From positions 1,549,402 through 1,613,401 of the forward strand of contig CAVXEJ010000004.1 in NCBI GenBank assembly GCA_963760815.1: a DNA stretch of 64,000 bases, read 5' to 3'. Within the stretch, counting starts at the first letter, position 1, and each line of letters opens with the position of its first letter. The DNA comes from an uncultured Actinomycetes bacterium (GTDB lineage: Bacteria > Actinomycetota > Thermoleophilia > Gaiellales > Gaiellaceae). The position numbers and the translations under genes are program-made. Under the pieces are notes generated by a model that saw only the letters and a list, made by a program, of their open reading frames with translations, was not told the DNA's origin and ran no database searches. This document shows, in pieces, positions 2,164 to 61,313 of this stretch.

Positions 2164-3324
2164 CGGGTCACCCTCCAGGAGTAGGACGCGGGCGAGCGGT
2201 CCGCTTTGCCGACGGGATCGATCGAGCGGACGCGGAAGATGTGCCGGCCGGGCTTCACGGTCGGGCGAAAGGGCGACGAGCAGCTACGGAACGGCTTGCG
2301 GTCGAGGCGGCACTCGAACGCCGAGCCCTTGAACGACGATGCGAAGCGGAACTCCGCCTTGCGCTTCTCCGTCAGTCTTCCCCGGCTTCTTCGTGATGGT
2401 CGTGTTCGGCGGCGGGCACGTCGTCTGCGTCGCGCCCTCGAACTCGCCCTCGGGGTCGCTCGACGCGAGCGGCGTCAGGTCGCCGGTCTTCAGGCTGAAC
2501 GTGCCGTACTGGTTCTCGTCGTCGCCCTGGTACGTCCAGGCGTAGAGCGTGCCGGTCGTGTTGTCGAAGTCCATCCCCTGGGCGAAGTTGGAGTTCACGC
2601 CGGTCGCGCCGACGAACGTCGTGGCGCCGGTCTTCGTGTTGACCCGGAAGATGCTGTCGCGGCTGATGTCGTGCGCGTACATGGCGCCGTCGCAGTTGAC
2701 CGAGGCCGCGGCGATCAGGGTCGCCTCGTCGATCAGGTCGACGAGCGTGGCGGTTCCGGTCTTGAGGTTCAGCGTGTAGAGCGCGGGCGCCGTTGCGCCC
2801 TGGCTCGTGGCGTACGCCTTGCCCGTCCTCGGGTGGATCGTGAGCGACGACCAGTAGTGGCCGGCGAGCGGAGCCGAGGGACCGACGACAGTGAACGCGC
2901 CGCTCGTGAGCGTCATCGTGCCGAGCTGGTTGCTCGTCTGGTCGAGGGCGTAGAGCGTCTTGGCGCCCGGGTCGAAATCGAGGCCGAAGATGAGCCTCGT
3001 GTTCGGCCCGAGGACAACCTGCCCGGGAAAGTCGTTCAGCCGGTGGCGGACGACGTTGTTCGTGAGCGGCCCGATGTCGTGCGCGAAGGCGAAGCTCGTC
3101 GCCGCGAAGACGTGTCGGCCGCCGGGGTGCGCATCGGCCGGCCGGGGCTCCGCTTCCGCGGACGGGCACGCGTCCGCGTAGCCGGCGGGCTCGGCGAGCC
3201 CGGAGTCCGCGCCGCAGTCGATCGCGGCCCCGCGGGCGCCTGCGGCGAATGCGAGCGTCAGGGCGGCGAGCAGCGCAAGCGGGAGCAGCAGCCACAGATG
3301 TCGCTCGTCGCGCGCGCTCGTCAT
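2160..3324 (-). CDS. Secreted beta-propeller-like repeat protein with a C-terminal two-Cys Ig-like basic module; apparent frameshift near 2369
   Basis: Signal peptide HLWLLLPLALLAALTLAFAAGARG. Repeated LY.LD/TG..T.VG motifs. After PPNTTITKKPGKTD, a 1-nt shift gives EKRKAEFRFASSFKGSAFECRLDRKPFRSCSSPFRPTVKPGRHIFRVRSIDPVGKADRSPASYSWRVTR, stop at 2160-2162. Confidence 0.7.
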
Positions 3325-42190: not shown

Positions 42191-42495
42191 TCGGCGTCGA
42201 GCTCGCGCTCGGCGGAGCGCAACCGTGCGAGGGCGAGGTCGAACGAGCGGGCGAGGTGCGCCTCGATCCGGCCGAGCCGCTCGCGGGCGACGCGGACGCT
42301 TTCGAGGGCGGCGTCGAGCTCGTCGAGCGCCTCGCTCATGAGCTCGAACCGCTCGACGGCCGGGAGCACGTCGCCCCAGCGGGCGCGAAGGTCCTCGAGG
42401 TGCCCCTGGGCAGCCACGAGCAGATCCGGAAGCGGCGGGTCGAGACGGAGCTCCTCCCCGAAGACGACGATCCGCTCGGTCAGTTCCTCGGCCAT
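42187..42495 (-). CDS. Hypothetical 102-aa all-helical protein, ATGA-coupled to the MFS gene
   Basis: ORF with stop/start overlap at 42187-42190. No family recognised. Confidence 0.45.
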   Translation of the reverse strand: MAEELTERIVVFGEELRLDPPLPDLLVAAQGHLEDLRARWGDVLPAVERFELMSEALDELDAALESVRVARERLGRIEAHLARSFDLALARLRSAERELDAE

Positions 42496-42550
42496 GTCCG
42501 AAAACTACCGGCGCGGCGCGGGCGCAAAACGGCGGCGGCACCTCCGGCGG

Positions 42551-43783: not shown

Positions 43784-45049
43784 ATGAGCGACGACGGCTT
43801 CCGTTCCGACCTCGCCCGCGAGACCGCACCCGGCGCGCTCGAGCGGTTCCTGCGCTACGCGCGCATCGACACGCAGGCCGACCCGACCTCGGACACCGTT
43901 CCCTCGACCGCCAAGCAGCTCGACCTCTCCCGACTGCTCGTGGAGGAGTTGCACGAGCTCGGGCTCGAAGACGCCTTCCTCGACGACCAGGGCTACGTCC
44001 TAGCGACCGTGCCTGCCACCGTCGACCGGCAGATCCCGACGATCGCCCTCCTCGCCCACGTCGACGTCGCCTCGGACGCGCCTGCGGACAACGTGCAGCC
44101 CCAGGTGATCCGCTACGACGGAAGCCGTGTGCCTTTGCCCGGCGATCCCGCGATCGCCCTCGATCCCGAGGTGAGCCCGAAGCTCCTCGACCACGTCGGA
44201 CACGAGCTGGTGACGAGCGACGGGACGACGCTCCTCGGCGCCGACAACAAGGCCGGGGTCGCGGCGATCATGGCGGCCGCCGAGTACCTGCTCGCCCACC
44301 CGGAGCTCGAGCACGGGCCGCTTCGGATCTGCTTCACGCGCGACGAGGAGATCGGGACCGGCACGAACGGGCTCGCGCTGGAGAGCCTCGGCGCCGAGGC
44401 CGCCTACACGATCGACGGCTCGACCGCCGGCGAGATCGAGAACGAGACCTGGACCGCGCGCGAGGCGACGATCACGTTCACCGGCGTCGCCGTCCACCCG
44501 GGCTCGGCCAAGGACCGGCTCGTGAACGCGCTCAAGGCCGCCGCCCACTTCGTCGCCGCGCTGCCGCCCGACTCGCTCTCGCCGGAGACGACCGAGGGCC
44601 GTGACGGCTTCGTCCACCCCTGGCGGGCATCCGGGAACAGCGAGGTCTTCACGCTGGTGATGATCCTGCGCGCCTTCGACGACGACTCGCTCGCCGAGAA
44701 GGAGCAGCTCGTGCGCCGGCTCGCCGACGAGGCCGTCGCCGCCTACCCCGGCTCCGCGGTCAAGATCGCGGTGATCGAGCAGTACCGCAACATGAAGGAG
44801 TACCTCGACGGCCATCCGCAGGTACTCGACAAGGCGATGGAAGCCGTGCGGCGCACCGGGATCGAGCCGACGCTGCACGAGATCCGCGGCGGCACCGACG
44901 GCTCGAAGCTCTCCGAGCGCGGCCTCCCCACGCCGAACCTCCCCACCGGCGGACACGACTTCCACGCCCGCAACGAATGGCTCTGCGTCGCCGACCTCGG
45001 CGCTGCCGTCGCGACGATGGTGCACCTGGCCCAGATCTGGGCCGAATGA
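43784..45049 (+). CDS. pepT: Peptidase T (M20B tripeptidase)
   Basis: LERFLRYARIDTQADP...LLAHVDV...GADNKAGVAAIM...TRDEEIG...GGTDGS. 421 aa. Confidence 0.85.
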   Translation: MSDDGFRSDLARETAPGALERFLRYARIDTQADPTSDTVPSTAKQLDLSRLLVEELHELGLEDAFLDDQGYVLATVPATVDRQIPTIALLAHVDVASDAPADNVQPQVIRYDGSRVPLPGDPAIALDPEVSPKLLDHVGHELVTSDGTTLLGADNKAGVAAIMAAAEYLLAHPELEHGPLRICFTRDEEIGTGTNGLALESLGAEAAYTIDGSTAGEIENETWTAREATITFTGVAVHPGSAKDRLVNALKAAAHFVAALPPDSLSPETTEGRDGFVHPWRASGNSEVFTLVMILRAFDDDSLAEKEQLVRRLADEAVAAYPGSAVKIAVIEQYRNMKEYLDGHPQVLDKAMEAVRRTGIEPTLHEIRGGTDGSKLSERGLPTPNLPTGGHDFHARNEWLCVADLGAAVATMVHLAQIWAE

Positions 45050-45443: not shown

Positions 45444-45854
45444 ATGCGACTTCGCGTCCTGCTCTCAGGGTTCGGCTTCTTTCTCACAGCACTCGTGATC
45501 GCCTGGGGGCCGGTCGCCGCCAGCGCGCACGGAGCCGTGGCGTGCACGATCAAGGGGACGAACGGTCCCGACCAGCTGCTCGGGACCTCGCGCAAGGACG
45601 TGATCTGCGGGTACGGCGGAAACGACATCATCGCCGGCCTCTCCGGGAACGACATCCTCAAGGGCGGCGCGGGCAACGACCGCATCCAGGGCGACGCGGG
45701 CAACGACCGCCTCTTCGGCGGGCCCGGCCGCGACACGCTCTACGGCTACGACGGCGCCCGCGACTGGCTCGACGGCGGAACCGGCTACGACCAGGGCTAC
45801 CGCGACCGCACGGTCGACTCGATCAAGAACGTCGAGCGCTACCCAGGGCTCTAG
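45444..45854 (+). CDS. Small secreted protein with hemolysin-type (RTX, GGxGxD) calcium-binding repeats
   Basis: Signal peptide [28 protein letters not shown], then [50 protein letters not shown] lies 7 nt before the ATG. Confidence 0.75.
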
Positions 45855-46927
45855 GCCGAAGACGCGGCCCGGCGTTCGCGCTGGTACGCGAGCACCTCGC
45901 GGAGGATCGCCAGGATCGACCCGGCCGTCGGGATCGCGACGAGCGCCCCGAGGATCCCCGCCAGCTCGGCGCCGATCAGCACCGAGATCAGCACGAGGAG
46001 CGGCGAGAGCTGCACCGTCCGGCCGTAGACGAGCGGCTGGAGCACGTGGTTTTCGAGCTGCTGGTAGCAGATGAAGAACACCGCGACGATGACCGCCTGG
46101 ACCCAGCCGAGCTCCACCGTCACGACCGCCGTCACAATGATCGCGGCCAGGGTGGCGCCGGCAAGCGGGATCAGGTCGAGGACGGCCACGACCACGCCGA
46201 GCGCGACCGCGTACTTCGAGTCCACGAGCAGCAGGACGATCGTGGCGGCGATCCCCGCGATGAGGCTGATGGCCAGGTTCCCGGTCACGTAGCCGCCGAT
46301 CGTCTTGTAGATCTCGCCGCCGACGCGCTCCCACCGGGCGGCCATCGACTTCGGGAGCAGGCCGAGGAACCGCTCGATCACGGTCGGGCCCTCGAGGAGC
46401 ATGAAGAAGGTGAGGAACGCGATCGTGACCGCGCCGACGACGGCGGTGACGACGCTCTTCGCAACGGCGACCGCGGGCTCGGTCACGCCGAGGACGCCGC
46501 CGAGGCCGTGCTTCTCGATCGCCTCGCGCACGCGTTCGACGATCTGGTAGTCGCGCTCCAGGAATCCGAGCGGCCCGCGGCCCTTCGTCAGGTCGTCGAT
46601 CAGGTCGGGGACGGCCTCGATGAAGTCGCGGATCTGGGTGACGAGCGGCGGGATGACGAGGAAGCCGAGCCCGGCGAGCGCGAGCAGCGCCGCGACGAAC
46701 ACGATCCCCGCCGCCATTCCCCTGCGGATCCCGCGCCGGATCAGGAATTCCACGGCCGGATTGAGCGCCGCCGCGAGGAAGAGCGCGATCAGGATCCACG
46801 TGATGACATGCCAGGCCAGGTAGACGAGCGCAATGCCGAAGAAGACGAGCAGCACGATCCCCAGGATCTGGAGCACGGTCCGGGGCCTGACGACCACCAC
46901 GCGAGTCGCTTCTTCGGGCATGAACAC
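45851..46927 (-). CDS. AI-2E family (PerM/UPF0118) transporter
   Basis: 358 aa polytopic; [23 protein letters not shown]...[16 protein letters not shown]...[12 protein letters not shown]. Confidence 0.85.
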
Positions 46928-46998
46928 AAGTGTCCCAGCGAGGTCAGACAGCCTCTAAAGGGGGTTCAGACGACCCGCCCGAAGTGCGACATTCATTG

Positions 46999-49900
46999 GT
47001 GGTGCCCAAACACGCGCTGCGGCTTGGCCTGAGTCTCTCCGGGGTCCTTCTTCTCGCCATTGGTGCGGGAGGCTCCAGCGCGGCCGAAACGCATCTTGCG
47101 AAGCGCGTTGCAGCGCCGACGAGCGTCGGCCGGGCCGACATCGAGGGAACGCTTGCGAACGACCAGGTGATCGTCCGCTTCAAGGCCGGCACGACCGCGG
47201 CCGAGCGCAGCGACGCCCTCGACGAGGTCGACGCGACCGTCGACCGGACGCTGCTCCCGCGGATGCAGGTCGTGGACCTGCCCGACGACGTCGCGGTCGG
47301 CGAGGCGGTCGGCACGCTCGAGGCGAACCCCGACGTCGCCTACGCGGAGCCGAACTTCGAGCGCAAGGCGGCCGCGATCCCGAACGATCCCGAGTACCCG
47401 GAGCTCTGGGCGCTGCCGAAGATGGGCATGCCTGCGGCCTGGGACCTCGCGACCGGCAGCACGAGCGTGATCGTCGCCGTGATCGACACGGGCGTCGCCT
47501 ACGACCATCCCGACCTCGCGCCGAACATCTGGACGAACGACGATCCGGCGGGCGGCGGCGACTCCGACGGCAACGGCTTCGTCGACGACACACACGGGTG
47601 GGACTTCGTCCAGGAGGACGCCGTGCCGCTCGACTTCCACTACCACGGCACGCACGTGGCCGGGACGATCGGCGCCAAGGGCAACAACAACCTCGGCCTC
47701 CCCGGCGTCAACTGGGACGTCTCGCTGATGCCCGTCCGCGCCGGCGACTTCTACGGCTCGTTCGACTCCTCGGACACGATCGCCGCCTACACCTACGCCT
47801 GCCAGAACGGCGCGCGCGTGGTGAACGGCAGCTTCGGCGGGCCCGGGTTCTCCCAGGCCGAGCTCGACGCGATCAACTCGCCCGCGTGCGCGAACACGCT
47901 CTTCGTCTTCGCCGCAGGGAACGACGGCTACAACATGGACACCGTCGGGCCGCTCGAGTACCCGTGCGCCTACAACACGGCGCGGATCATCTGCGTCGCG
48001 GCGAGCAACGAGACCGACGGGCGCGCATCGTTTTCGAACTACGGCGCGACGAGCGTCGACATCGCGGCGCCCGGCACCGACATCTTCAGCGCCAGCCCCG
48101 TCTGGGACTTCGTCGGCCAGCTCGAGAGCTTCGAGGACCCCGGGTTCGGCGCCCGCTGGGCCCTCCCGACGGCCACGAACGGCGGGCCGCTTTGGGGACG
48201 CACCGCCGAGTTCAAGTCGGCGGCGACATTCAGCCTCGCCGACTCGCCGTCGGTCGTCACGGGCACGCCGATCCCCTACGCGAACAACACGATCAACCAG
48301 GTCGTGAACGATCTGGAGCTGGCGGATCTGACCGGCAAGCGCGGGTGCTTCCTCCAGTACGACCTGCGCCACGACATCGACGTGGGCGACTTCCTTCGGA
48401 TCTACGGCGGTACGACCAACGTGCCTGCGGCGATCACCACCGAGATCGTCTCGCTCTGGAGCATCTCGCCGAGCACGGAGTTCGTGCTCGTCCAGGACGA
48501 CCTCTCGATGTTCGACGGCGCACCCGCCGTTTACCTGAAGGTCCAGCTCGAATCGAACAACGACGGGAACGTCGGCGACGGCGCCTTCCTCGACGCGGTC
48601 GGCGCGGTGTGCCTCGACCCCGGCGTCGAGAACTACCAGCGCCTCGACGGAACCTCGATGGCCGCGCCGCAGGTTTCCGGCGTCGCCGCGCTCATGATTG
48701 CGCGCAACCCCGATCTGACCGTCACGCAGACGCGGAACATCATCCTGGCGACGGCCAACACGGTCCCCGGCTTCTCCGTCCCGGTTCCGCTCGTCGCCAC
48801 CGGCGCACGGCTCGACGCGCTCGACGCCGTCGAGCACGCAGTCCTGCCGCCCGCACCCACGATCGGGCTGGGCCCCTCCGGCTCGGTTTCTTCGACCGCG
48901 GCCACATTTGCCTTCACCGGCGAGGTCGGCGCGGTCGAGTGCCGCCTCGACGCCGCGCCGTTCGCGCAGTGCGTCTCGCCGGTCGACTACACGGGCCTCG
49001 CACAGGGCGAGCACACCTTCCGCGTCCGCGCGACGAGCCCCGCCGGGCCGTCGGACACGACCACGCGCGTCTGGACCGTGGACACGATCGCCCCGGCCGC
49101 GCCCACGATCGACTCGGGCCCGACCGGCGCCGTCTCGTCCACCACCGCGACCTTCACGATCTCGAACGTCGAGGGCGGGCTGACCTTCGAGTGCAGCCTC
49201 GACGGCGGCGCGTTCGCCGTCTGCTCCTCGCCGGCGGTCTTCAACGGCCTGAGCGAGGCCCCGCACACGCTCGACGTCCGCGCGAAGGACGCCGCCGGGA
49301 ACACCTCGGGGACGACCTCGCGCAACTGGATCGTCTCGCTCGTGGACACGCCGACGATCGACTCCGGCCCCTCAGGCGCGGTCTCCTCCACGGCGGCGTC
49401 GTTCGCGTTCACCGACGTCGAGGGTGGAACGACGCTCGAGTGCAGCCTCGACGCGGCGCCGTTCGCCGTCTGCACCTCACCGAGGAACTACTCGAGCCTG
49501 GCCCAGGGCTCGCACACGTTCCAGGTGCATGCCGTGAACGGGCTCGGAAGCGTCTCCGACCCCGCGAGCCGCACCTGGACCGTGGACACGGTCGACCCGG
49601 TCGCGCCGACGATCGACACCGGGCCCACAGGGCTCGTCGCCTCGACCGCCGCCTCCTTCACCTTCTCGAACGTCGAGGGCGGGCTCGTCTTCGAGTGCAA
49701 GCTCGACAGCGACCCGTTCGCCGCGTGCACCTCGCCGGTCGACCTGACGAGCCTCGGGCAGGGCTCGCACACCTTCCAGATCCGGGCCAAGGACGCCGCG
49801 GGGAACACCTCGCCGGCCGCCTCGCGCACCTGGACGGTCGACACGGTCGCGCCCCCCACGCCGACGATCGACACCGGCCCGACCGGAACCGTCGCCTCGA

Positions 49901-52884
49901 CGAGCGCGTCGTTCGGGTTCACCGCCACGGAGATCATCGAGTGCCGGATCGACTCCGACCCGTTCGCGGCCTGCAGCTCGCCCGCCGGCTACTCGAGCCT
50001 CGCGCAGGGCGCCCACACCTTCGAGGTCCGCGCCTCCGACCTCGCCGGGAACATGTCCGGCGTCGCCTCGCGCACGTGGACCGTGGACACCGTCGCGCCG
50101 CCGGCGCCGACGATCGATTCCGGCCCGACCGGGTTCGTCTCCTCCACGGCGGCGAGCTTCACCTTCTCCGACACCGAGGCCGGCGCCGTCCTCGAGTGCC
50201 GGCTCGACTCGGACCCGTTCGCCGTCTGCACCTCGCCCGCGAACTACACCGGCCTGAGCCAGGGCGCGCACACCTTCGACGTGCGCGCCAAGGACGCCGT
50301 GTCGAACACGTCGGCCACGACCTCGCGGACGTGGACGGCCGACACGGTCGCCCCGCCGGTTCCGACGATCGACTCCGGGCCCACCGGCACGGTCGCCTCG
50401 ACCGCTGCGAGCCTCGCCTTCTCCGACACCGAGGGCGGCGTCACGCTCGAGTGCCGCCTCGACGGCGCGGCGTTCGGCGCCTGCACCTCCCCGGCGGACT
50501 ACACGAGCCTCGCCCAGGGCGCCCACACCTTCGACGTGCGCGCCTCCGACGCCGCCGGCAACACGTCGTCCGCCGCCTCGCGCACGTGGACCGTGGACAC
50601 CGTCGCCCCGCCCGATCCGACGATCGACTCCGGGCCCACCGGCGCAGTCTCGTCCACCTCGGCGAGCTTCGCCTTCTCCGACACCGAGGCCGGCGCCGTC
50701 CTGGAATGCCGCCTCGACTCGGATCCGTTCGCCGTCTGCACCTCGCCCGCCGACTACACCGGCCTGGCGCAGGGCTCACACACCTTCGACGTTCGCGCCA
50801 AGGACGCCGTCTCGAACACCTCCGGGACGACCTCGCGCACGTGGACGGTCGACACGATCGCGCCCGCCGATCCCACGATCGACACCGGCCCGAGCGGCAC
50901 CGTCGCCTCGACCTCGGCCGCCTTCGAGTTCAGCGGCACGGAGACGCTCGAGTGCCGGATCGACGGCGGGTCGTACGCAACCTGCTCGTCGCCGAAGAGC
51001 TACACGAGCCTCGGCCAGGGATCCCACACGTTCGACCTGCGCGCGACGGACGCCGCGGGGAACGCCTCGGGCACGGCCTCGCGCACCTGGACGGTCGACA
51101 CGGTCGCCCCGCCGGTCCCGACGATCGACTCCGGGCCCACGGGTACCGTCGCCTCGACCGACGCGAGCTTCACCTTCTCCGACACCGAGGGCGGCGCCGT
51201 CCTCGAGTGCCGCGTCGACTCGGATCCGTTCGCCGTCTGCACCTCGCCGACCGACTACACGAGCCTCGCCCAGGGCGCCCACACCTTCGACGTCCGCGCC
51301 AAGGACTCGGTCGGGAACACGTCCGCCGCAGCCTCGCGCACCTGGACGGCCGACACGGTCGCCCCGCCCGCCCCGACGATCAACTCGGGCCCGGCGAACG
51401 GCTCGTTCGTCTCGTCCACGTCGCCGTCGTTCGGGTTCTCCGACACCGAGGCCGGCGTGGTCTTCGAGTGCAGCCTCGACTCGGGCTCCTTCGACGTCTG
51501 CACCTCGCCGGCCGGATACACCGTCGGCCAGGGCGCGCACACCTTCGACGTCCGCGCCAAGGACTCCGTCGGGAACACCTCCGGCGCGACCTCGCGCGCC
51601 TGGACGGTCGACACGGTCGCACCGCCGATCCCGACGATCGATTCGGGCCCGAACGGCACCGTCGCCTCGACGAGCGCGGCGTTCACGTTCTCCGACACCG
51701 AGGGCGGCGTCACGCTCGAGTGCAAGCTCGACACGGCGGCGTTCGCCCCGTGCACGTCGCCGGCCGACCTCACCCTCCTCGCCCAGGGCGCGCACACGTT
51801 CGAGGTGCAGGCGAAGGACGCGGCCGGGAACACGGCCTCCACGTCGCGCGCCTGGTCGGTCGACACCGTCGCCCCGCCCGTCCCGACGATCAACTCGGGC
51901 CCGTCCGGCTCCGTGAACACGGGCAGCGCGACGTTCACGTTCTCCGACACCGAGGCCGGGGTGGTCTTCGAGTGCCGGCGGAACGCCGATCCGTTCGCGG
52001 TCTGCACGTCGCCGGTGGGCTACGGCGCGCTCGCCGAGGGCGCGCACTCCTTCGACCTCCGTGCGAAGGACGCCCTGGGTAACACCTCGACGACCGTCAC
52101 GCGCAACTGGACGGTCGACACGGTCGCCCCCGCCGATCCCACGATCGACACCGGCCCGACCGGCACCGTCGCGACGACGGCCGCGACCTTCACCTTCAGC
52201 GGCGAGGCCGGCGCGACCTTCGAGTGCGCCCTCGACGCCGGCGCCTTCGCGGCCTGCACCACTCCGCGCGTGCTCCTCGGGCTCGCCCAGGGCGCCCACT
52301 CGTTCCAGGTGCAGGCGAAGGACGCGGCCGGGAACGTCTCCGCCGGCGCCGCCTCGCGGGCCTGGAGCGTCGACACCGTGGCCCCGCCCGCTCCGACCTT
52401 CTCCTCCGGCCCGACCGGATCGGTCAAGTCCACGGCGGCCAGCTTCGCGTTCGCGGACACCGAGCCCGGCGTCTCCTTCGAGTGCCGCCTCGACGGCGCC
52501 GCGTACGCGCCGTGCACCTCGCCGGTCGCGTTCACCGCGCTCACGCAGGGCCTGCACACCTTCAACGTCAGGGTCACGGACGGCGCAGGCAACATCTCGA
52601 CCGCCGCAGCCCGCACCTGGACGGTCGACACCGTCGCGCCGAACACGACCATCACCGCCGGCCCGAAGACCGGGACGGCGACCACGGCGACGTTCAAGTT
52701 CACGTCCAACGAGGCCGGCGCGACGTTCAAGTGCAAGCTCGACAAGGGCGCCTGGGCGATCTGCAAGACCGGGAAGGTCTACAAGAAGCTGAAGAAGGGC
52801 TCGCACACGTTCCAGGTCGCGGCGACGGACAAGGCCGGAAATCTCGACAAGACGCCCGCCAAGAAGACCTGGAAGATCGTTTAG
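46999..52884 (+). CDS. Giant secreted S8 subtilase (~1960 aa): signal peptide, I9-like propeptide, S8 domain with ~180-aa insert, 16 two-Cys Ig-like modules
   Basis: VAVIDTGV (Asp), HGTHVAGTIGA (His), AAGNDG (Asn), GTSMAAPQVSG (Ser). 16 x ...EC[RSK][LIV]D...F..C.SP...G.HTF.V.A.D..GN... Start ambiguous (GTG 46930/46984/46999). Confidence 0.9.
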   Translation: MVPKHALRLGLSLSGVLLLAIGAGGSSAAETHLAKRVAAPTSVGRADIEGTLANDQVIVRFKAGTTAAERSDALDEVDATVDRTLLPRMQVVDLPDDVAVGEAVGTLEANPDVAYAEPNFERKAAAIPNDPEYPELWALPKMGMPAAWDLATGSTSVIVAVIDTGVAYDHPDLAPNIWTNDDPAGGGDSDGNGFVDDTHGWDFVQEDAVPLDFHYHGTHVAGTIGAKGNNNLGLPGVNWDVSLMPVRAGDFYGSFDSSDTIAAYTYACQNGARVVNGSFGGPGFSQAELDAINSPACANTLFVFAAGNDGYNMDTVGPLEYPCAYNTARIICVAASNETDGRASFSNYGATSVDIAAPGTDIFSASPVWDFVGQLESFEDPGFGARWALPTATNGGPLWGRTAEFKSAATFSLADSPSVVTGTPIPYANNTINQVVNDLELADLTGKRGCFLQYDLRHDIDVGDFLRIYGGTTNVPAAITTEIVSLWSISPSTEFVLVQDDLSMFDGAPAVYLKVQLESNNDGNVGDGAFLDAVGAVCLDPGVENYQRLDGTSMAAPQVSGVAALMIARNPDLTVTQTRNIILATANTVPGFSVPVPLVATGARLDALDAVEHAVLPPAPTIGLGPSGSVSSTAATFAFTGEVGAVECRLDAAPFAQCVSPVDYTGLAQGEHTFRVRATSPAGPSDTTTRVWTVDTIAPAAPTIDSGPTGAVSSTTATFTISNVEGGLTFECSLDGGAFAVCSSPAVFNGLSEAPHTLDVRAKDAAGNTSGTTSRNWIVSLVDTPTIDSGPSGAVSSTAASFAFTDVEGGTTLECSLDAAPFAVCTSPRNYSSLAQGSHTFQVHAVNGLGSVSDPASRTWTVDTVDPVAPTIDTGPTGLVASTAASFTFSNVEGGLVFECKLDSDPFAACTSPVDLTSLGQGSHTFQIRAKDAAGNTSPAASRTWTVDTVAPPTPTIDTGPTGTVASTSASFGFTATEIIECRIDSDPFAACSSPAGYSSLAQGAHTFEVRASDLAGNMSGVASRTWTVDTVAPPAPTIDSGPTGFVSSTAASFTFSDTEAGAVLECRLDSDPFAVCTSPANYTGLSQGAHTFDVRAKDAVSNTSATTSRTWTADTVAPPVPTIDSGPTGTVASTAASLAFSDTEGGVTLECRLDGAAFGACTSPADYTSLAQGAHTFDVRASDAAGNTSSAASRTWTVDTVAPPDPTIDSGPTGAVSSTSASFAFSDTEAGAVLECRLDSDPFAVCTSPADYTGLAQGSHTFDVRAKDAVSNTSGTTSRTWTVDTIAPADPTIDTGPSGTVASTSAAFEFSGTETLECRIDGGSYATCSSPKSYTSLGQGSHTFDLRATDAAGNASGTASRTWTVDTVAPPVPTIDSGPTGTVASTDASFTFSDTEGGAVLECRVDSDPFAVCTSPTDYTSLAQGAHTFDVRAKDSVGNTSAAASRTWTADTVAPPAPTINSGPANGSFVSSTSPSFGFSDTEAGVVFECSLDSGSFDVCTSPAGYTVGQGAHTFDVRAKDSVGNTSGATSRAWTVDTVAPPIPTIDSGPNGTVASTSAAFTFSDTEGGVTLECKLDTAAFAPCTSPADLTLLAQGAHTFEVQAKDAAGNTASTSRAWSVDTVAPPVPTINSGPSGSVNTGSATFTFSDTEAGVVFECRRNADPFAVCTSPVGYGALAEGAHSFDLRAKDALGNTSTTVTRNWTVDTVAPADPTIDTGPTGTVATTAATFTFSGEAGATFECALDAGAFAACTTPRVLLGLAQGAHSFQVQAKDAAGNVSAGAASRAWSVDTVAPPAPTFSSGPTGSVKSTAASFAFADTEPGVSFECRLDGAAYAPCTSPVAFTALTQGLHTFNVRVTDGAGNISTAAARTWTVDTVAPNTTITAGPKTGTATTATFKFTSNEAGATFKCKLDKGAWAICKTGKVYKKLKKGSHTFQVAATDKAGNLDKTPAKKTWKIV
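48841..52881 (+). repeat. Array of 16 tandem ~250-260-nt coding repeats (Ig-like module), last unit Lys-rich
   Basis: Counted from the translation (16 paired-Cys motifs). Units starting about 50083, 50593 and 51093 are mutually most similar. Confidence 0.9.
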
Positions 52885-52921
52885 CTAGTAACGAGCGGCG
52901 CGAGTTGGGACACTTTGCGGC

Positions 52922-55900
52922 ATGTCCAGAGCCGCCTGGCGGCTTGCCGCCCTGCTCACGCTGATCGCAGCGTCGGTGCTCGTTCCCGCCTCGGCCGGCA
53001 GCAGCGGCCGGACTTTGGTGCAGGGTGCGACGTTCCACGGCGCCGAGATCGTCCCGAACCAGCTGATCGTCCGGTTCGAGCCCGGGACGACCCTCGGCGA
53101 GCGCCGCGGGGCCGTGCGCGACCAGGGAGCGACCGTTGCGCAGTCGCTCGCGCTGCCCCGGACTGAGCTGGTCGAGCTCCCCGAGGACACCTCCGTCGAG
53201 GAGGCGATCGCCGCGTTCGAGGCCGACCCCGACGTGGCCTACGCCGAGCCGAACTACGTCTACGAGATCTCGGCCGTCCCGAACGACACGAACTTCGGGC
53301 TCCTGTGGGGTCTCAACCAGGTGAGCGACAAGGACATCGACGCGCCCGAGGCCTGGGACCTCACGACGGGCAGCTCGAGCATCCTCGTCGGCGTGATCGA
53401 TACCGGGGTCGCGTACGACCATCCCGACCTCGCGGCGAACATCTGGACGAACGACGACCCGGCCGGCGGCGGCGACAACGACGGGAACGGGTTCGTCGAC
53501 GACACGCACGGCTGGGACTTCGTCTCGAACGACAACGTGCCGCTCGACGCGAACGAGCACGGCTCGCACGTCGCCGGGACGATCGGCGCGCGCGGCAACA
53601 ACGCGCTCGGCATCACGGGGGTGAACTGGCAGGTGTCGATCATGCCGCTGCGCGCGGGCAACGCCGGCGGCGGCCTGACCGACAGCGCGATCGTCGGCGC
53701 GATCACCTACGCCTGCGCGAACGGCGCGCGGGTCGTGAACGGAAGCTTCGGCGGCGTCGGGTCGTCGCAGGCGACCTTCGACGCGATCACCTCTTCTGCG
53801 TGCGCCAACACGCTGTTCGTCTTCGCGGCCGGGAACGGCGGCATCGACGGGATCGGCGACGACAACGACACGATGCCGCAGTACCCGTGCAACTACGCGA
53901 CGACGAGGATCGTCTGCGTCGCCGCGACCGACCAGAACGACGCGCGTGCGACCTTCTCGAACTTCGGCGCGACGAGCGTCGACCTCGCGGCGCCCGGGGT
54001 GGCGGTCTACAGCACGATCCCGACGTTCGCGAACGTCGCCACCGACGGCTTCGAGGACACGCCGACGCTCTTCAGCACGCGCTGGGGCTCCCAGTTCGCG
54101 CCGGCCGGCCATCCGCTCTGGGGCCAGCAGAGCCCCGGCGCCTCCGGGTCACGTTCGCGCTGAGCGACTCGCCGTCGGGCAACTACTCGGCGAGCACCGA
54201 CTCGCAGATCCGCTCGATCACGGGAACGAATCTCACCGGCCGAGCCGGCTGCTCGCTCGGCTATCTCATGCATCTGGAGACGCAGGGACCTGGCGACGTC
54301 TTCAGCATCTACGCCGCGAGCGCGTTCGGCGGCCCGTACTTCAACCAGGCGGGCTGGACAGGAACGACCGAGCCCGGGTTCTGGCTCTTCTACACGGAGC
54401 TCGGAACCTTCGACGGACAGCCGAACGTCTTCCTGCTCTTCCGGCTCCAGAGCGACGCCGCGGGACAGGCCGATGGCGCCCTCATCGACGACATCAGGTT
54501 CAGGTGCGCGACCACACCGCCGCCGGCCGGCGACTACCGCAACCTGAACGGAACGTCGATGGCGGCCCCGCACGTGGCCGGCGCCGCGGCGCTCGTCTTC
54601 GCCCGCAACCCGGCGCTGACGCCGGCCCAGGTCCGGACGATCCTGCTGGCCACGGTCGATCCGGTCGCAGGCCTCGGCGTGGCGAGCGGCGGCCGGCTGA
54701 ACCTCCGCAGCGCCGTGGCCTCCGTCGACGTGACGTCTCCGGACACGACGATCGACACCGGCCCGTCCGGCCTGGTCAACGACTCGACGCCGACGTTCAC
54801 GTTCTCGAGCAGCGAGGCCGGGACGTTCCAGTGCCGGGTCGACACCGCCTCGTTCGCTGCGTGCACCTCGCCGCACACGACGGCCGCACTGGCCGAGGGC
54901 GCCCACACGTTCGAGGTGCGCGCGGTCGACCAGTTCGGCAACACCGATCCGACTCCGGCGAGCCGCTCGCTCACGGTCGACACCACCGCGCCGCAGACAG
55001 CGATCGATTCGGGCCCGTCCGGGGCGATTAACGACACGACGCCGACGTTCGGATTCTCCAGCGAAGCGGGCGCGACTCTCCAGTGCCGCATCGACACCGC
55101 TGCGTTCGCGGGGTGCAGCTCGCCGCTCACCACGGCCGCGCTGGCCGACGGCGCTCACACCTTCGAGGTGCGCGCAACCGACGAAGCCGGCAACACCGAT
55201 CCGACGCCGGCGAGCCGGTCGTTCACGGTCGACACGAGCGCGCCGCAGACGACGATCGACTCCGGCCCGTCGGGCGCGACCAACGACACCACGCCGACCT
55301 TCGCGTTTTCGAGCGAAGCCGGCGCGAGCCTCCAGTGCCGCGTCGACACGGCGGCGTTCGCGGCGTGCAGCTCGCCGCTCACCACGGCTGCGCTGGCCGA
55401 GGGCGCTCACACCTTCGAGGTGCGTGCGACGGACGAAGCCGGCAACACGGATCCGACCCCTGCGAGCCGCTCGTTCGCGGTCGACACGACGGCGCCGCAG
55501 ACGACGATCGATTCGGGTCCGTCGGGGCCGACGAACGACACGACGCCGACGTTCACCTTCTCGAGCGAAGCGGGCGCTGCCCTCCAGTGCCGCATCGACG
55601 CCGCCTCGTTCGCCGCCTGCAACTCCCCGTTCACCCCGGCGGCGCTGACGGACGGAGCCCACACCTTCGAGGTGCGCGCAACCGACGAGGCCGGCAACAC
55701 GGACGTGAGCCCCGCGAGCCAGGCCTTCACCGTTGACACGACTCCGCCGACGCTCCCCGCGATCGACTCCGGACCCGCCGGCACGATCAAGCTCACGGGC
55801 GCCACGTTCGCGTTCTCGAGCGAGCCGGACGCGAGCTTCGCGTGCAGCCTCGATGGCGCGGCATTCGCCGCCTGCACGTCGCCGGCCGTCTTCGCCGGGC

Positions 55901-56247
55901 TCGGCCAGGGCGCGCACACGTTCCAGGTGCAGGCGACCGACCTCGCCGGCAACACCTCGGGCGCGACGTCGCGCGCCTGGATGGTCGACACGAAGGCGCC
56001 GAATGCGACGATCGGCAGGGGCCCGGCGAAGTCGACGAAGACGCGAACGGCGACCTTCAGGTTCTCCTCCACCGAGGCCGGAGCGACCTTCAAGTGCAAG
56101 CTCGACCAGGGCGCGTGGCGAATCTGCAAGTCCCCCAAGACCTACCGAAACCTGAAGAAGGGCTCACACACGTTCCAGGTCACCGCGACCGACAAGGCAG
56201 GGAATGCCGACAAGACACCGGCGAAGAGGAGGTGGAAGGTCACGTAG
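52922..56247 (+). CDS. Secreted S8 subtilase paralogue 2 with 6 Ig-like modules; apparent 1-nt deletion at GGG 54146-54148
   Basis: VGVIDTGV, HGSHVAGTIGA, AAGNGG in ORF 52922..54163. It continues in the ORF 53305..56247 frame (VTFALSDSPSGNYSASTD...GTSMAAPHVAG + 6 modules), collinear with paralogue 3. Confidence 0.85.
54724..56244 (+). repeat. Array of 6 tandem Ig-like coding repeats, last unit Lys-rich
   Basis: FQCRVDTASFAAC, LQCRIDTAAFAGC, LQCRVDTAAFAAC, LQCRIDAASFAAC, FACSLDGAAFAAC, FKCKLDQGAWRIC. Confidence 0.9.
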
Positions 56248-56293
56248 ACCCTTTGGGGGGTAGTCGGGCGCACCACTCGCGGTGAAACTCTGA

Positions 56294-59200
56294 GTGTCGA
56301 GAATGGCCCGCCGCCGCACCGCACTTCTCACACTCGTAACGACCTCCGCGCTTATTGTCGCCGTGGCCGGCTCGAGCGCGCGGGCGCTGGCGAGCGCATC
56401 AGCGGCTCCCGCCCTAAGCAGTAGCGCACCGGCTCTCGTTCACGGCGCCTTGTTCAACGGCGCCGAGATCGTCCCGAACCAGGTGATCGTCCGCTTCGCG
56501 GCCGGAACTTCCTCGGCCGGCCGGCGTGCGGCCGTGCGAGCCGAAGGAGCCGCGATCGCAGAACCGCTGAGCCTTCCACGTACCGAGCTCGTCGAGCTCG
56601 CGGACGGCACGTCCGTCGAGGACGCGATCGCCGCGTTCGAGGAGAACCCCGACGTTACGTACGCGGAGCCGAACTACGTCTCCCAGCTGAGCGCGATTCC
56701 GAACGACACGAACTTCGCGCAGCTCTGGGGCCTGAATCAGGTGAGCGACAAGGACATCGACGCGCCCGAGGCCTGGGATCTCACCACGGGCAACTCGAGC
56801 ATCATCGTCGCGGTGATCGACTCGGGCGTCGCGTACGACCACCCCGACCTCGCGGCCAACATCTGGACGAACGACGACCCGGCGGGCGGCGGTGACCAGG
56901 ACGGAAACGGCTTCGTCGATGACACAAACGGCTGGGACTTCGTCGCCAACGACAACGCGCCCCTCGACGCCAACGAGCACGGCACGCACGTCGCGGGGAC
57001 GATCGGCGCGCGCGGCAACAACGCGCTCGGCGTCACGGGAGTCAACTGGCAGGCGTCGATCATGCCGCTCCGCGCAGGCAACGCCTCCGGGAGCCTGACG
57101 GACGCCGCCATCATCGACGCGATCGTGTACGCGTGCGCGAACGGCGCTCGCGTGGTGAACGGGAGCTTCGGCGGCGGCGGGTTTTCCCAGGCAACGCTCA
57201 ACGCGATCGACTCGGTGGCCTGCGCGAACACGCTGTTCGTATTCGCCGCGGGGAACGGCGGCAGCGACGGCATCGGCGACAACAACGACACAACACCGGA
57301 GTACCCCTGCAACTACAACACGACCAGGATTGTCTGCGTCGCCGCGACGGATCAGAACGACGCGAGGGCGTTCTTCTCGAACTTCGGCGCGACGAACGTC
57401 GATCTCGCGGCCCCGGGCGTCGGGATCTTCAGCTCGATGCCAACGTTCGTGAACGTCCTGAGCGACGGCTTCGAGGACACGCCGACGCTCTTCAACACGC
57501 GCTGGGGCGGCCAGGCCGCGCCCACTGGCCATCCGCTTTGGGGGCCGCAGAACTTCGTCTACGCCGGCGGTGGCGCGTTCAGCCTGAGCGACTCGCCGGC
57601 GGGCAACTATTCGGCGAACACGGACACGCACATCCGCTCGCTCACCGGAAGCAACCTCTCCGGCCGGGCCGGCTGCTCGCTCGGCTACAACATGCACCTC
57701 GCCACCGAGCCGCTCCTCGATGGGGTCACGATCGAGGCCTCGACCGCGTTCGCGGGCACCTACACCGACGTGAGCCAGGGCGGCTGGAGTGGTACGACCG
57801 GACCCTTCTTCTTCGGGTTCCAGGAGGACCTCGGGGCCTTCGACGGGCAGGCGAGCGTCTTCCTGCGCTTCCGGCTGAGAAGCAACGGCACCAATCAGTT
57901 CGACGGAGCGCACATCGACGACATCTCCCTCAACTGCGTGACCACGCCGTCGGCCCCCGGCAACTACCAGAACCTGACCGGCACGTCGATGGCCGCGCCG
58001 CACGTGGCGGGCGCCGCGGCACTCGTCCTCGCCCGCAACCCGGCTCTAACCACTGCTCAGGTGAGAACAATCCTGCTGAGCACGGTCGACCCGATCGCCG
58101 GCCTCAGCGTGGCCAGCGGCGGCCGGTTGAACGTCGGCAGCGCGGTGGCAGCCGTGGACGTCGTTGCTCCGCAGACCACGATCGACACCGGCCCGTCAGG
58201 CCCGACGAACGACTCCACGCCGACGTTCACCTTCTCCAGCAGCGAGCCCGGAACCTTCCAGTGCCGCGTCGACGCCAGCGCTTTCGCGGCCTGTACGTCG
58301 CCGCACACGACCGCGGTGCTGGCCGACGGCGCCCACACCTTCGAGGTGCGCGCGACCGACCTGGCCGCGAACACCGACCCGACCCCCGCGAGCAGGACGT
58401 TCACGGTGGACACCGCCGTCCAGACGCAGATCGACTCCGGCCCCTCCGGCCTGACCAACGACTCGACGCCGACCTTCGCGTTCTCGAGCGAGCCCGGAGC
58501 GACCTTCGAGTGCCGCGTGGATACCGGAAGCTTCGCCGCCTGCACCTCGCCGCACACCACCTCGGAACTGGTGGACGGTCCGCACACCTTCGACGTCCGC
58601 GCAACCGACCTGGACGGCAACACCGACCCGACCCCTGCGACCCGGTCGTTCACGGTCGACACGACGCCCGCGCAAACGCAGATCGACTCGGGCCCCTCCG
58701 GCCCCACCAACGACTCCACGCCGACCTTCACGTTCTCGAGCGAGGCCGGAGCGACCTTCCAATGCCGCAGCGACGGCGAGCCCTTCGCCGCCTGCACCTC
58801 ACCGCACACCACCTCGATCCTGGGCGAAGGAGCCCACACCTTCGACGTCCGCGCGACCGACCAGGCCGCCAACACCGACCCGACCCCCGCGAACCGGTCT
58901 TTCACGGTCGACACCGTCGTCCAAACGCAGATCGACTCGGGCCCCTCGGGCCTGACCAACGACTCCACGCCGACCTTCACCTTCTCCAGCGAGGCCGGGG
59001 CGACCTTCCAATGCCGCACCGACGCCGACCCCTTCGCCGCCTGCAGCTCGCCACACACCACCTCGATCCTGGCCGAAGGAGCCCGCACCTTCGAGGTGCG
59101 CGCGACCGACCCGGCCGGCAACACCGACCCCACCCCGGCGAGCCGGTCGGTCACGGTGGACACGACGCCGCCCCCGATCCCAGCGATCGTCGGCCCAGGC

Positions 59201-59668
59201 GGCACGGTCGCCACGACGGACGCCACCTTCGCGTTCTCCAGCGAAGCAGGCGCGTCCTTCGAGTGCCGCCTCGACGGGACGGCCTTCGCCGCGTGCGCGT
59301 CCCCGGACGGCTTCACGGGGCTCGCCCAGGGCGCGCACTCGTTCCAGGTGCGGGCTACGGATACGGCCGGCAACACCTCGGCCGCCGCCTCCCGCGCGTG
59401 GAGCGTGGACACGACGGCGCCGAACACGACGATCACGGGTGGACCGCCGGCAAGGACGACGAACAAGACCGCGACGGTCAAGTTCAAGTCCACTGAGGCC
59501 AACTCGACCTTCAAATGCAAGCTCGACAAGGGCGCCTGGACGGCCTGCAAATCGCCGAAGACCTACCGCAACCTGAAGAAGGGCTCGCACACGTTCCAGG
59601 TCGCCGCGACCGACAAGGCCGGCAACGCCGACAAGACGCCGGCCAAGAGGACCTGGACGATTACTTAG
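56294..59668 (+). CDS. Secreted S8 subtilase paralogue 3 (1124 aa) with 6 Ig-like modules
   Basis: VAVIDSGV, HGTHVAGTIGA, AAGNGG, GTSMAAPHVAG. Signal peptide MSRMARRRTALLTLVTTSALIVAVAG. Intact frame. Confidence 0.9.
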   Translation: MSRMARRRTALLTLVTTSALIVAVAGSSARALASASAAPALSSSAPALVHGALFNGAEIVPNQVIVRFAAGTSSAGRRAAVRAEGAAIAEPLSLPRTELVELADGTSVEDAIAAFEENPDVTYAEPNYVSQLSAIPNDTNFAQLWGLNQVSDKDIDAPEAWDLTTGNSSIIVAVIDSGVAYDHPDLAANIWTNDDPAGGGDQDGNGFVDDTNGWDFVANDNAPLDANEHGTHVAGTIGARGNNALGVTGVNWQASIMPLRAGNASGSLTDAAIIDAIVYACANGARVVNGSFGGGGFSQATLNAIDSVACANTLFVFAAGNGGSDGIGDNNDTTPEYPCNYNTTRIVCVAATDQNDARAFFSNFGATNVDLAAPGVGIFSSMPTFVNVLSDGFEDTPTLFNTRWGGQAAPTGHPLWGPQNFVYAGGGAFSLSDSPAGNYSANTDTHIRSLTGSNLSGRAGCSLGYNMHLATEPLLDGVTIEASTAFAGTYTDVSQGGWSGTTGPFFFGFQEDLGAFDGQASVFLRFRLRSNGTNQFDGAHIDDISLNCVTTPSAPGNYQNLTGTSMAAPHVAGAAALVLARNPALTTAQVRTILLSTVDPIAGLSVASGGRLNVGSAVAAVDVVAPQTTIDTGPSGPTNDSTPTFTFSSSEPGTFQCRVDASAFAACTSPHTTAVLADGAHTFEVRATDLAANTDPTPASRTFTVDTAVQTQIDSGPSGLTNDSTPTFAFSSEPGATFECRVDTGSFAACTSPHTTSELVDGPHTFDVRATDLDGNTDPTPATRSFTVDTTPAQTQIDSGPSGPTNDSTPTFTFSSEAGATFQCRSDGEPFAACTSPHTTSILGEGAHTFDVRATDQAANTDPTPANRSFTVDTVVQTQIDSGPSGLTNDSTPTFTFSSEAGATFQCRTDADPFAACSSPHTTSILAEGARTFEVRATDPAGNTDPTPASRSVTVDTTPPPIPAIVGPGGTVATTDATFAFSSEAGASFECRLDGTAFAACASPDGFTGLAQGAHSFQVRATDTAGNTSAAASRAWSVDTTAPNTTITGGPPARTTNKTATVKFKSTEANSTFKCKLDKGAWTACKSPKTYRNLKKGSHTFQVAATDKAGNADKTPAKRTWTIT
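58154..59665 (+). repeat. Array of 6 tandem Ig-like coding repeats, last unit Lys-rich
   Basis: FQCRVDASAFAAC, FECRVDTGSFAAC, FQCRSDGEPFAAC, FQCRTDADPFAAC, FECRLDGTAFAAC, FKCKLDKGAWTAC. Confidence 0.9.
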
Positions 59669-61313
59669 CCGAACGTGAAGGCGTAGGCCTCGACGCCGGG
59701 CGAGAAGCGCAGCTCGAGCAGATGCTCGCCGGCCTCGGGGAGATCGGTCAGGCGGTACAGGTCGTCCTCCTTCACGGTGACCGTCTTCACCGGCTTGCCG
59801 TCGAGGAGCACCTGCACCGTGCCGGGCTTGCCGTCGGTGCCGAGCACGAGGTTCGCGTTCGCCGCCCAGTAGCGCAGCCGCAGCTTCGCGCCCTCGCCCG
59901 CGACGATGCGCTCGCCCTCGACCGTCCACGCGCCTGCGTACGAGACGCCGTTCTCCGGGATCGTCTCGGCGAACTGGTAGTCGGTCAGGCGGTTGGCCGT
60001 GATGGGACTGCCGTAGTAGCCCTGGAGCCGCTCGGCGCCGAGGTAGGTCTCGGGCGTCTGCACGTCGCCCGGCGCCTCGGCATCCACGTCGTTGGAGACG
60101 AGCGCCGGCAGATCGTCCTCGGCGAGCAGCGTGCGGATCGCCTCCTCCGTCTTTGCGTACTCGCCCTCGCCGAAGTGCGCGAAGCGGATGCGCCCGGAAC
60201 GGTCGACCAGGTACTTCGCGGGCCAGTACCGGTTCTGCCACGCCTCCCACGTCCCGAAGTCGGGATCGAGCGCGACCGGGTAGGCGAGGCCGAGCCGCCG
60301 CACGGCGCTCTCGACGTTCGACTTCTCCCGCTCGAAGGCGAACTCGGGCGTGTGCACGCCGACGATCACGAGCCCCTTGTCGCGGTACGTCTCGTCCCAC
60401 TTCTTGATGTACGGCAGCGTGCGCAGGCAGTTGATGCACGAGTACGTCCAGAAGTCGATGAGGACGACCTTGCCCTTGAGCTCCTTCATGGTCAGCGGGT
60501 CGCTGTTCAGCCACGCCTCGATCCCCGCGAACTCGGGCGCGGGTCCGCCGTCGCCGAGCTCGTCGCCCTCCGCGGCCACCTCGGCGCGGCCCGGGAACGA
60601 TGCTGTCGAGCCGGTCCTGCACGTCGTCCGAGTTCTCGAGCTTCTGGAGCGCGCGCGTGTACTCCGGGCAGGTTCGTCTGCAGGCGCGTGTCCACGTTGA
60701 AGGCCATGAGGATCGCGACGACGAGCACGGCCCCGCCGAGCGCGCGGCGGATCATCGGGCGCGGCGGTCTTGAACCGCGGCATCGCGAGCCCTCGGCGGC
60801 CGGCGATCGCGAACCCGAGCAGGACGAGACCCGGCGCCGAGCGCGTACGCCAGCGTGATCAGCACCGCGTCGAGGGAGAGATCCTGCGTCGCGGCCACGG
60901 TCGCGACCGCGCCGATGACGGGCCCCGCGCACGGGGTGAAGACGAGTCCCGAGGCAGACGCCGAGCAGAAAGCCACCGCCGGCCCGGCGCGAGTCGAGCC
61001 GGGAGAAGCGCGCGAACGGCCGCTCGAACGCCTGGCCGAGCCGCGGCCAGAGCAGCGAGAGCCCGACGAGCGCGACCACGACGATCGCGATGTTCCGCAG
61101 CAGGTCGTCCGGCAGGTGGAGCGCCGAGAGCAGCGCGGTCGCGGTCAGCGTGAAGATCGTGAAGCTGACGACGAGCCCGGCGACGATCGCGTACGGCTGC
61201 CGCTCGTTCCCGGTCGTGCCGCCCGCGAGGATCACCGGAAGCACCGGCAGCACGCACGGCGAGAGCGCCGTGACGATCCCGGCGACAAACGCGACTGCGA
61301 GGAGAAGTAGCAT
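59665..61313 (-). pseudogene. dipZ: DipZ-type protein (CcdA membrane domain + thioredoxin-like domain + C-terminal beta domain) interrupted by about 5 frameshifts between 60590 and 60960
   Basis: CcdA part: LSPCVLPVLPVILAG / GLVFTPCAGPVIGAV. Trx part: VVLIDFWTYSCINCLRTLP. The parts are spread over frames of ORFs 60507..61313, 60752..60976, 59665..60783 and 58799..60622. May be an assembly artefact. Confidence 0.75.

Follow-up and report, generated by a model that had tools for sequence, protein, structure and literature searches.

We examined a 64-kb stretch of DNA (contig CAVXEJ010000004.1 of an uncultured Gaiellaceae bacterium of the class Thermoleophilia; hereafter the window, with a G+C content of about 70% throughout), which carries three tandem genes for secreted S8-family proteases (subtilases). 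Each gene encodes a catalytic head followed by an array of immunoglobulin (Ig)-like modules, and the last module of each array is strongly basic. The architecture is real and well conserved, and it is one of putatively surface-displayed subtilases newly combined from known parts. The best explanation as a whole, which we hold with middling confidence, is that the proteins are retained non-covalently at the cell surface, the head being carried on a stalk of acidic modules and the basic module serving as a foot. An earlier sequence-only reading proposed a dedicated cell-surface protease on a stalk; the domain order and the idea of display fit our results, whereas its points on a fixed triplet and on an unplaceable module fail. 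The three co-directional S8 genes and their spacers of 37 and 46 nt were confirmed from the open reading frames (ORFs) of the plus strand, and only these short spacers suggest that the genes are co-transcribed, since scans for promoters and terminators found no more than in shuffled sequence. The features of the three genes are as follows.

46984..52884, plus strand: gene 1, long-stalk subtilase (ORF from 46930/46984; 1966 aa as read).
47140..47355, plus strand: gene 1 propeptide, Fervidolysin_NPro-like (PF22148, residues 53-124, E 6.5e-11, 43 bits).
47464..48822, plus strand: gene 1 S8 catalytic domain (D168, H221, N313, S558; Pfam match in two stretches).
About 48100-48630, plus strand: gene 1 insert, a predicted divergent jelly roll that interrupts the S8 domain (no Pfam match).
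48838..52629, plus strand: gene 1 stalk, 15 acidic Big_13-type modules (net charge -2 to -7 each; Tandem Repeats Finder period 255 x 14.6 copies).
52630..52881, plus strand: gene 1 terminal basic module (net +12, isoelectric point (pI) 10.1, 19% Lys; reaches the stop codon).
52922..54150, plus strand: gene 2, 5' part (signal peptide, propeptide, Asp160/His213/Asn305, start of the insert; the frame stops at 54163).
54147..54150, plus strand: gene 2 frameshift site (2 extra nt, TC/CA, relative to the orthologues by blastn).
54151..56247, plus strand: gene 2, 3' part in the other frame (remainder of the insert, Ser at 54556-54558, stalk, basic end module).
54730-55992, plus strand: gene 2 stalk, 5 acidic modules.
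55993-56244, plus strand: gene 2 terminal basic module (net +16, pI 10.9).
56294..59668, plus strand: gene 3, intact short-stalk subtilase (1124 aa from GTG 56294, or 1121 aa from ATG 56303).
57446..57952, plus strand: gene 3 insert, a predicted MAM/CBM-like jelly roll between Asn321 and Ser565.
58160..59413, plus strand: gene 3 stalk, 5 acidic modules (4 of subtype B, 1 of subtype A).
59414..59665, plus strand: gene 3 terminal basic module (net +12, pI 10.3).

From the N- to the C-terminus, gene 1 thus encodes a signal peptide, a propeptide, the S8 head interrupted by the insert, 15 acidic modules and one basic module. The start of this gene can be placed at either 46984 or 47002, and the called start of its orthologue P0079 corresponds to 47002; the counterpart of gene 3, P0001, was called from the ATG.

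Motif counting on the translations confirmed 16, 6 and 6 modules in the three genes, each of 82-87 aa, and Tandem Repeats Finder independently detected arrays with periods of 255, 252 and 249 nt. The copies are 34-89% identical in protein sequence, and adjacent copies are 54-87% identical in DNA (mean 71.5%), the longest common exact word being 41 nt. Each module carries exactly two Cys residues, as had been noted, although their spacing is 10 (C-x9-C) and not about 12. The earlier reading could not place the module in a named family, but it passes three family models. One is Pfam Big_13 (PF19077; cut-off 27), for which gene 1 scores 182.8 bits in 12 stretches, gene 3 scores 126.7 bits in 6, and single modules score 44.0 and 27.4 bits. 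Another is the OmpL47-type domain model NF047446 (cut-off 40), with 290, 128 and 114 bits for gene 1, the 3' part of gene 2 and gene 3, respectively. The last is NF033510 (Ca_tandemer; cut-off 50), with 139.5, 84.2 and 55.8 bits in the same order. An AlphaFold2 (AF2) model of the gene 3 terminal module (pLDDT 94.8) has seven strands and resembles the PKD domains of ColG, ColH and PrtV, the BIg domains of SiiE (TM-score 0.64-0.70) and the Y_Y_Y domain of BT4663; the weak E-values of these structural matches are consistent with a generic Ig-like fold. In this model, the two Cys residues are located on consecutive strands (E32-37 and E43-45), which suggests a C-x9-C disulfide. Acidic residues are conserved at the module borders ('VDT..AP..PTIDSGP'), and Ca2+ may stiffen the rod that the modules would form.

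A profile search with the terminal-module alignment against 1.84 billion cluster representatives yielded 34,829 proteins at E <= 0.001, with up to 45 copies; therefore, a 16-copy array is not unusual in itself. This search was dominated by giant multi-copy proteins, and it shows how abundant the module is and not where its basic terminal copies occur. Proteins carrying up to 45 copies are P0131-P0141. When the terminal module was used in a word-indexed search, the matches were limited to 10 short pieces of frameshifted genes.

The modules of the window can be grouped into three subtypes. Subtype A comprises modules 1-15 of gene 1 and the penultimate modules of genes 2 and 3, and subtype B comprises modules 1-4 of genes 2 and 3. 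Subtype C consists of the three final modules, which share 71-74% identity among themselves and about 40% with the others. Charge clearly separates the final modules from the remainder: each of the 25 non-terminal modules is acidic (net -2 to -10, pI 4.1-5.0), while the three terminal modules are basic (net +12, +16 and +12; pI 10.1-10.9; 15-19% Lys) and reach the stop codon. The same polarity was found in relatives. Related clusters occur in five metagenome-assembled genomes (MAGs), referred to as L003 (CAVRUF010000007), L004 (OY970285), L005 (OY970312), L006 and L007 (OY970117). In the two that are cleanly assembled, L004 and L005, the terminal module of all seven genes (7/7) has a net charge of +13 to +17 and ends 0-1 residue before the stop codon, while all other modules are at or below 0. 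Among the 120 closest members of the family defined by S8 plus insert, 58 end within 5 residues of such a module, with a mean net charge of +9.5, and the modules preceding it, where there are any, range from -4 to -8. In 75 loci from many phyla, which were fetched by an FKCKLD-type pattern and are biased to Lys-containing modules, 26 terminal modules average +11.8 and 553 internal ones average -5.2, with 1% of the internal modules reaching +5. The positions F32, C34, L36, D37, C44, K48, Y50, G56, H58 and F60 are invariant in the terminal module. This polarity, seen both in the window and in the relatives, supports a division into spacer and foot, and it makes the conserved, strongly basic terminal module a candidate anchor.

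Modules of the 'F[KE]CKLD' type were also seen in L008-L077, which include Rokubacteria, Chloroflexi, Nitrospirota, Acidobacteria, Deltaproteobacteria and one archaeal MAG; there they are mostly internal and acidic, and some are fused to a polysaccharide deacetylase (L042). We rejected the possibility that modules of the 'FKCKLD' type occur at the C-terminus without exception, since the majority of the 75 loci from other phyla carry them internally.

Two further observations bear on the role of the terminal module. One concerns the position that it occupies. Other members of the protease family end in PASTA, Calx-beta or RTX repeats instead, and the PASTA domains lie at the extreme C-terminus of the sister members (residues 632-694 of 697, 655-715 of 720, and 730-789 of 793). 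PASTA is a peptidoglycan-binding domain, and its presence at the same terminal position supports, by analogy, an anchoring role for the basic module. Another is that the basic module forms the end of unrelated exoproteins, namely DUF4394/DUF6923 proteins, beta-helix proteins and a small protein. An example of the first kind is encoded within the window itself.

2166..3324, minus strand: DUF4394/DUF6923 exoprotein with a signal peptide and a basic end module (frameshift near 2372).

This protein ends in '...AFECRLDRKPFRSCSSPFRPTVKPGRHIFRVRSID...WRVTR*' and thereby belongs, in its last part, to the same module family as the protease foot. Right-handed beta-helix proteins with the basic end module were found in L050 and L053 (two Solirubrobacterales MAGs), and a 226-aa protein of L055 also ends in it. 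Such portability across unrelated exoproteins points to an anchor role as well. On these grounds, the basic end module may represent a portable domain for surface retention or sorting in Thermoleophilia that had gone unrecognised, and together with the acidic spacers it would constitute a charge-polarised 'ruler' that holds heads at graded distances; this broader proposal is tentative, and we regard it as possible rather than probable.

The portability of the module also bears on the alternative that it is a C-terminal sorting or secretion tag for a dedicated machinery, perhaps removed afterwards, as is the C-terminal domain (CTD) of the type IX secretion system (T9SS). A folded beta-sandwich of ~84 aa at the extreme C-terminus of diverse exoproteins would suit such a tag, and so would the conservation of particular positions (F32, C34 and others) beyond mere composition. 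However, the window yielded no candidate for such a machinery, the Pfam and NCBIfam scans gave no match to T9SS-CTD or any other family of sorting signals, the proteins have ordinary N-terminal signal peptides, and homologous modules are internal in many proteins. We thus consider this alternative improbable.

If the basic module is a surface-retaining foot, the observed domain order, charge polarity and whole-module length differences (see below) could be joined in the following way. The proteins would be exported by Sec, folded with the aid of the propeptide and then freed from it by cleavage. The foot would bind anionic polymers of the cell envelope non-covalently, while the acidic rod, repelled from the surface and possibly stiffened by Ca2+, would keep the head at a set distance. 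Ig-like domains in SiiE-type rods are about 3.3-4 nm long, so that a stalk of 6 modules would reach roughly 20 nm and one of 16 modules 50-60 nm. In this way, paralogues that differ in reach and in their heads would each degrade extracellular protein within a separate shell around the cell. The closest functional precedent is provided by the S8 proteases PrtB, PrtH and PrtL of Lactobacillus, which have Lys-rich C-terminal domains with a pI above 10, and for PrtL, electrostatic forces were reported as the main contributor to attachment (PMC10535647). As the sequence-only reading stated, neither an LPXTG motif nor a C-terminal transmembrane helix is present in the three sequences.

Several points weigh against surface retention. 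The proposal is read from charge, position and analogy, and it presumes anionic polymers in the envelope of these uncultured Thermoleophilia. The basic module could equally bind anionic substrates or soil particles. The 75 loci carry the sampling bias described above; beyond the close clade, only four of nine terminal modules reach +5; and the homologous module is internal in many proteins of other phyla.

The N-termini of the proteins look like ordinary signal peptides, with basic residues, a hydrophobic segment and an Ala-rich site of the cleavage type, and this hydrophobic segment is the sole one in each protein. The previously described order of signal peptide, S8 domain and modules was upheld, while the assignment of the propeptide as I9-like was not: Inhibitor_I9 is not listed at E <= 1 in the Pfam search, and the propeptide matches the Fervidolysin_NPro-like family PF22148 with 43-51 bits (cut-off 21). 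Peptidase S8 (PF00082; cut-off 21.8) is matched with 184 bits in gene 1 and 179 bits in gene 3. The residues Asp, His, Asn and Ser occur in this order in one polypeptide in gene 1 (D168/H221/N313/S558) and in gene 3 (D176/H229/N321/S565); the claim of a complete catalytic set holds for these two genes and not for gene 2, where a frameshift separates the Ser. The nearest solved catalytic domain is that of deseasin MCP-01 (3vv3; E 5.5e-67), followed by thermitase, and alignment to mature MCP-01 places the mature N-terminus near 'IPND'. A type VII secretion system (T7SS) mycosin (TIGR03921) was rejected, since the scores of 101-113 bits fall below the equivalog cut-off of 278.75.

An Asp-rich loop, 'NDDPAGGGDxDGNGFVDDTxGWDF', precedes the catalytic His at 47560-47640 (gene 1), 53470-53555 (gene 2) and 56890-56975 (gene 3). 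The 'GDGIDNDGNGYIDDVHG' loop of MCP-01 aligns with it, and its appearance suggests that it binds Ca2+.

The S8 match is broken by about 170 residues (384-553 in gene 3), the gap falling between residues 259 and 258 of MCP-01. This insert, for which no Pfam family and no PDB sequence match were found, is located between the oxyanion Asn and the catalytic Ser. An AF2 model based on a 118-sequence family alignment is a beta-sandwich with a pLDDT of 92.4, and its Foldseek matches (TM-score 0.5-0.6) are the MAM domains of InhA2, meprin and neuropilin, carbohydrate-binding modules (CBMs) including CBM27, and gingipain adhesin domains. A Cys pair, C82 and C169, is invariant across the family. According to the model, the insert is a MAM/CBM-like jelly-roll domain. 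PA domains of PrtP/ScpA-type subtilases occupy the same segment of the S8 domain (PMC10535647). The possibility of a PA-domain cell-envelope proteinase was ruled out, as PF02225 gave no match in the Pfam scan of the proteins and the insert is modelled as a MAM/CBM-like jelly roll.

These features of the heads bring in the alternative that the enzymes are freely released soil proteases, whose array and basic end bind a substrate or particles (for example, insoluble protein, anionic polysaccharide, extracellular DNA, clay or the walls of other bacteria) and not the surface of the producer. MCP-01, the closest solved head, is a released collagenolytic S8 protease whose PKD domain binds the substrate. 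The folds nearest to the module model include the PKD domains of the secreted proteases ColG, ColH and PrtV, the predicted jelly roll of the insert is similar to MAM domains as well as to carbohydrate-binding modules, and no covalent anchor motif is present. On the other hand, 15 acidic copies followed by one basic copy, which is always the last, have the look of a spacer and a foot and not of a multivalent binder; moreover, sister members carry PASTA at the same terminal position, and the same foot occurs on unrelated exoproteins. Release into the soil is therefore, in our judgement, rather unlikely, and surface retention by the basic foot is preferred.

Comparison with the relatives, all from uncultured Thermoleophilia or Actinomycetes, revealed how the cluster varies. 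The related clusters contain 3-5 tandem paralogues with 1 to 16 modules, including additional paralogues with 1, 2 or 3 modules, which the window lacks; the long-stalk gene is always the first, and there is one per cluster. Gene 1 has 16 modules, while its orthologue in L005 has 15 (79% identity), and gene 2 has 6 modules, while its orthologue has 8 (82% identity). These length differences, found between species-level relatives, are clean insertions or deletions of whole modules of 83-86 aa. The triplet is thus not a fixed conserved unit; given the 3-5 paralogues and the whole-module differences, the conserved unit is a dynamic cluster of stalked paralogues. Gene 1 is 51% identical to genes 2 and 3. 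Gene 3 is 74% identical to gene 2 and 56% identical to P0009, a 2-module gene of L005 that occupies the same position adjoining dipZ, and gene 3 seems to have arisen through recent duplication of a gene 2-type gene. For the long-stalk head, only three matches above about 51% identity were obtained in a search of 5.8 billion proteins. Within the limited literature collection searched, no description of this architecture in Thermoleophilia was found.

The variation in length raises the question of a strict Periscope system, in which near-identical repeats recombine frequently and members of one population differ in the length of the stalk. Our proteins match this class in having a functional head at the N-terminus of a rod of Big_13, which is listed as a rod-forming stalk fold of the class (PMC9704523), and the orthologues do differ by whole modules. 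However, the class is defined by very high repeat identity at the DNA level (PMC9704523), and the identities of adjacent repeats given above, as well as the 41-nt longest exact word, lie far below this definition; furthermore, the length differences were seen between species-level relatives and not between strains. Strict membership was rejected for this reason, and a Periscope system in the strict sense is very improbable.

Gene 2 had been taken as a single ORF. It was found instead as two overlapping ORFs, 52922-54163 and 53305-56247, in different frames, and the shift falls between the oxyanion Asn and the catalytic Ser, leaving Asp, His and Asn upstream and Ser downstream. The blastn alignments to L003, L004, L005 and L006 show a 2-nt gap at this site, and the truncated product of 413 aa is identical to the public protein P0012. 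Other genes split in the same 64 kb are murJ, dipZ and the DUF4394/DUF6923 exoprotein gene (four split genes in all). For murJ, on the minus strand, the ORFs 171-1910 and 1031-1873 cover Pfam MurJ positions 3-153 and 154-432 in different frames. For dipZ, one ORF corresponds to residues 12-225 and the other to residues 239-547 of the L005 protein, which is intact with 547 aa, and in the DUF4394/DUF6923 gene, the frameshift near 2372 lies beside a GGGG run. The relatives are Microflora Danica MAGs, obtained by deep Nanopore sequencing of soils and sediments (PMC12313526), and several of the related MAGs are rich in frameshifts in the same genes. Because an essential gene (murJ) is also split, an assembly error is more likely than a pseudogene; the gene 2 shift is probably a Nanopore-assembly error, and the gene is probably intact in the organism. 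A point on the other side is that a 2-nt insertion is not a classic homopolymer error, and a real pseudogene is possible.

The indel errors, which split four genes in 64 kb, might also cast suspicion on the arrays or the triplet as such. Nevertheless, the repeat copies have diverged (54-87% DNA identity), and clusters of the same architecture are syntenic in five independent related MAGs, two of which have long arrays fully in frame. For these reasons, the possibility of assembly artefacts, which the earlier reading had named as a refuting outcome, was not borne out, and such an origin is hardly credible.

The neighbouring genes in the window are listed below.

40259-42541, minus strand: major facilitator superfamily (MFS) transporter, just upstream of the cluster.
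43784-45049, plus strand: M20-family peptidase, likewise just upstream of the cluster (a member of its 90%-identity cluster is named 'tripeptide aminopeptidase', JGI source).
45851..46927, minus strand: AI-2E family transporter, divergent (PF01594, 196 bits).
59665..61313, minus strand: dipZ-like gene, convergent (DsbD_TM + Redoxin/Thioredoxin_10; frameshift; syntenic in relatives).

The earlier reading asked whether the triplet is conserved together with dipZ and the AI-2E gene. The dipZ gene is syntenic in relatives, but nothing ties either gene functionally to the proteases. A dipZ-like gene beside three proteases that hold about 70 Cys residues is of possible relevance. The M20 peptidase and the MFS transporter could be linked to the use of peptides.

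Members of the Thermoleophilia abound in soil but are seldom grown in culture, and little is known about the biology of their cell surface. A sequence rule for predicting the surface proteome of the class would follow if the basic end module were a general non-covalent anchor, namely a Big_13-type module at the extreme C-terminus with a net charge of about +10 or more; in that case, the module could also serve as a compact tag to display proteins on surfaces. Within one cluster, the gradation in stalk length would provide a natural test of the relation between the distance from the cell and the harvesting of extracellular protein. The enzymes are of some biotechnological interest as well, having a thermitase/deseasin-like S8 head with an internal domain predicted to be MAM/CBM-like.

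Finally, we compared the proteins with known systems. InhA2 of Bacillus (M6; PDB 4yu6) and meprin (4gwm) provide the best matches to the insert (E 5e-6 to 2e-5) and likewise bear an accessory beta-sandwich on a protease; however, they are metalloproteases in which the MAM domain follows the catalytic domain, while here it lies inside the S8 fold, and the identity is 16-17%. The module reaches 290 bits against the OmpL47-type domain model (NF047446), and OmpL47 of Leptospira is a surface-exposed protein (PMC2698987); nevertheless, the full-length equivalog scores 112 bits against a cut-off of 250, and OmpL47 has no protease domain. SiiE of Salmonella (PDB 2yn3) and the Periscope proteins share the Pfam module family and the use of tandem arrays to project an N-terminal functional part, but differ from our proteins in that the latter have much lower repeat DNA identity, a conserved C-x9-C, a protease as the cargo, and Sec export instead of the type I secretion system (T1SS). 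MCP-01, an S8A protease of Pseudoalteromonas, has the closest solved catalytic domain; it likewise carries an Asp-rich 'DxDGNG..DD' loop ahead of the His, and its C-terminal PKD domain is Ig-like. Unlike our proteins, it lacks the ~170-aa insert and has one PKD domain versus 6-16 Big_13 modules.

Among the surface-held subtilases, lactocepin PrtP and the streptococcal C5a peptidase ScpA resemble our proteins in concept, being held C-terminally at the surface behind beta-sandwich domains, although the LPXTG motif and the hydrophobic tail are missing here and the insert and stalk domains differ. Neither PF00746 nor PF03217 (the SlpA-type anchor) was matched in the Pfam scan. As for PrtB, PrtH and PrtL, the differences are that no PA, Fn-type A/B or SlpA domain was detected in our proteins by the Pfam and NCBIfam scans, that the spacer here is a Big_13 array and the basic anchor candidate itself has a Big_13-type Ig-like fold, that the insert here is a predicted jelly roll, and that the host is a Thermoleophilia soil bacterium. 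In both groups, however, a secreted S8 head with an insert between the oxyanion Asn and the catalytic Ser is followed by a long spacer and, with no LPXTG motif, by a Lys-rich C-terminal domain with a pI above 10 (PMC10535647).

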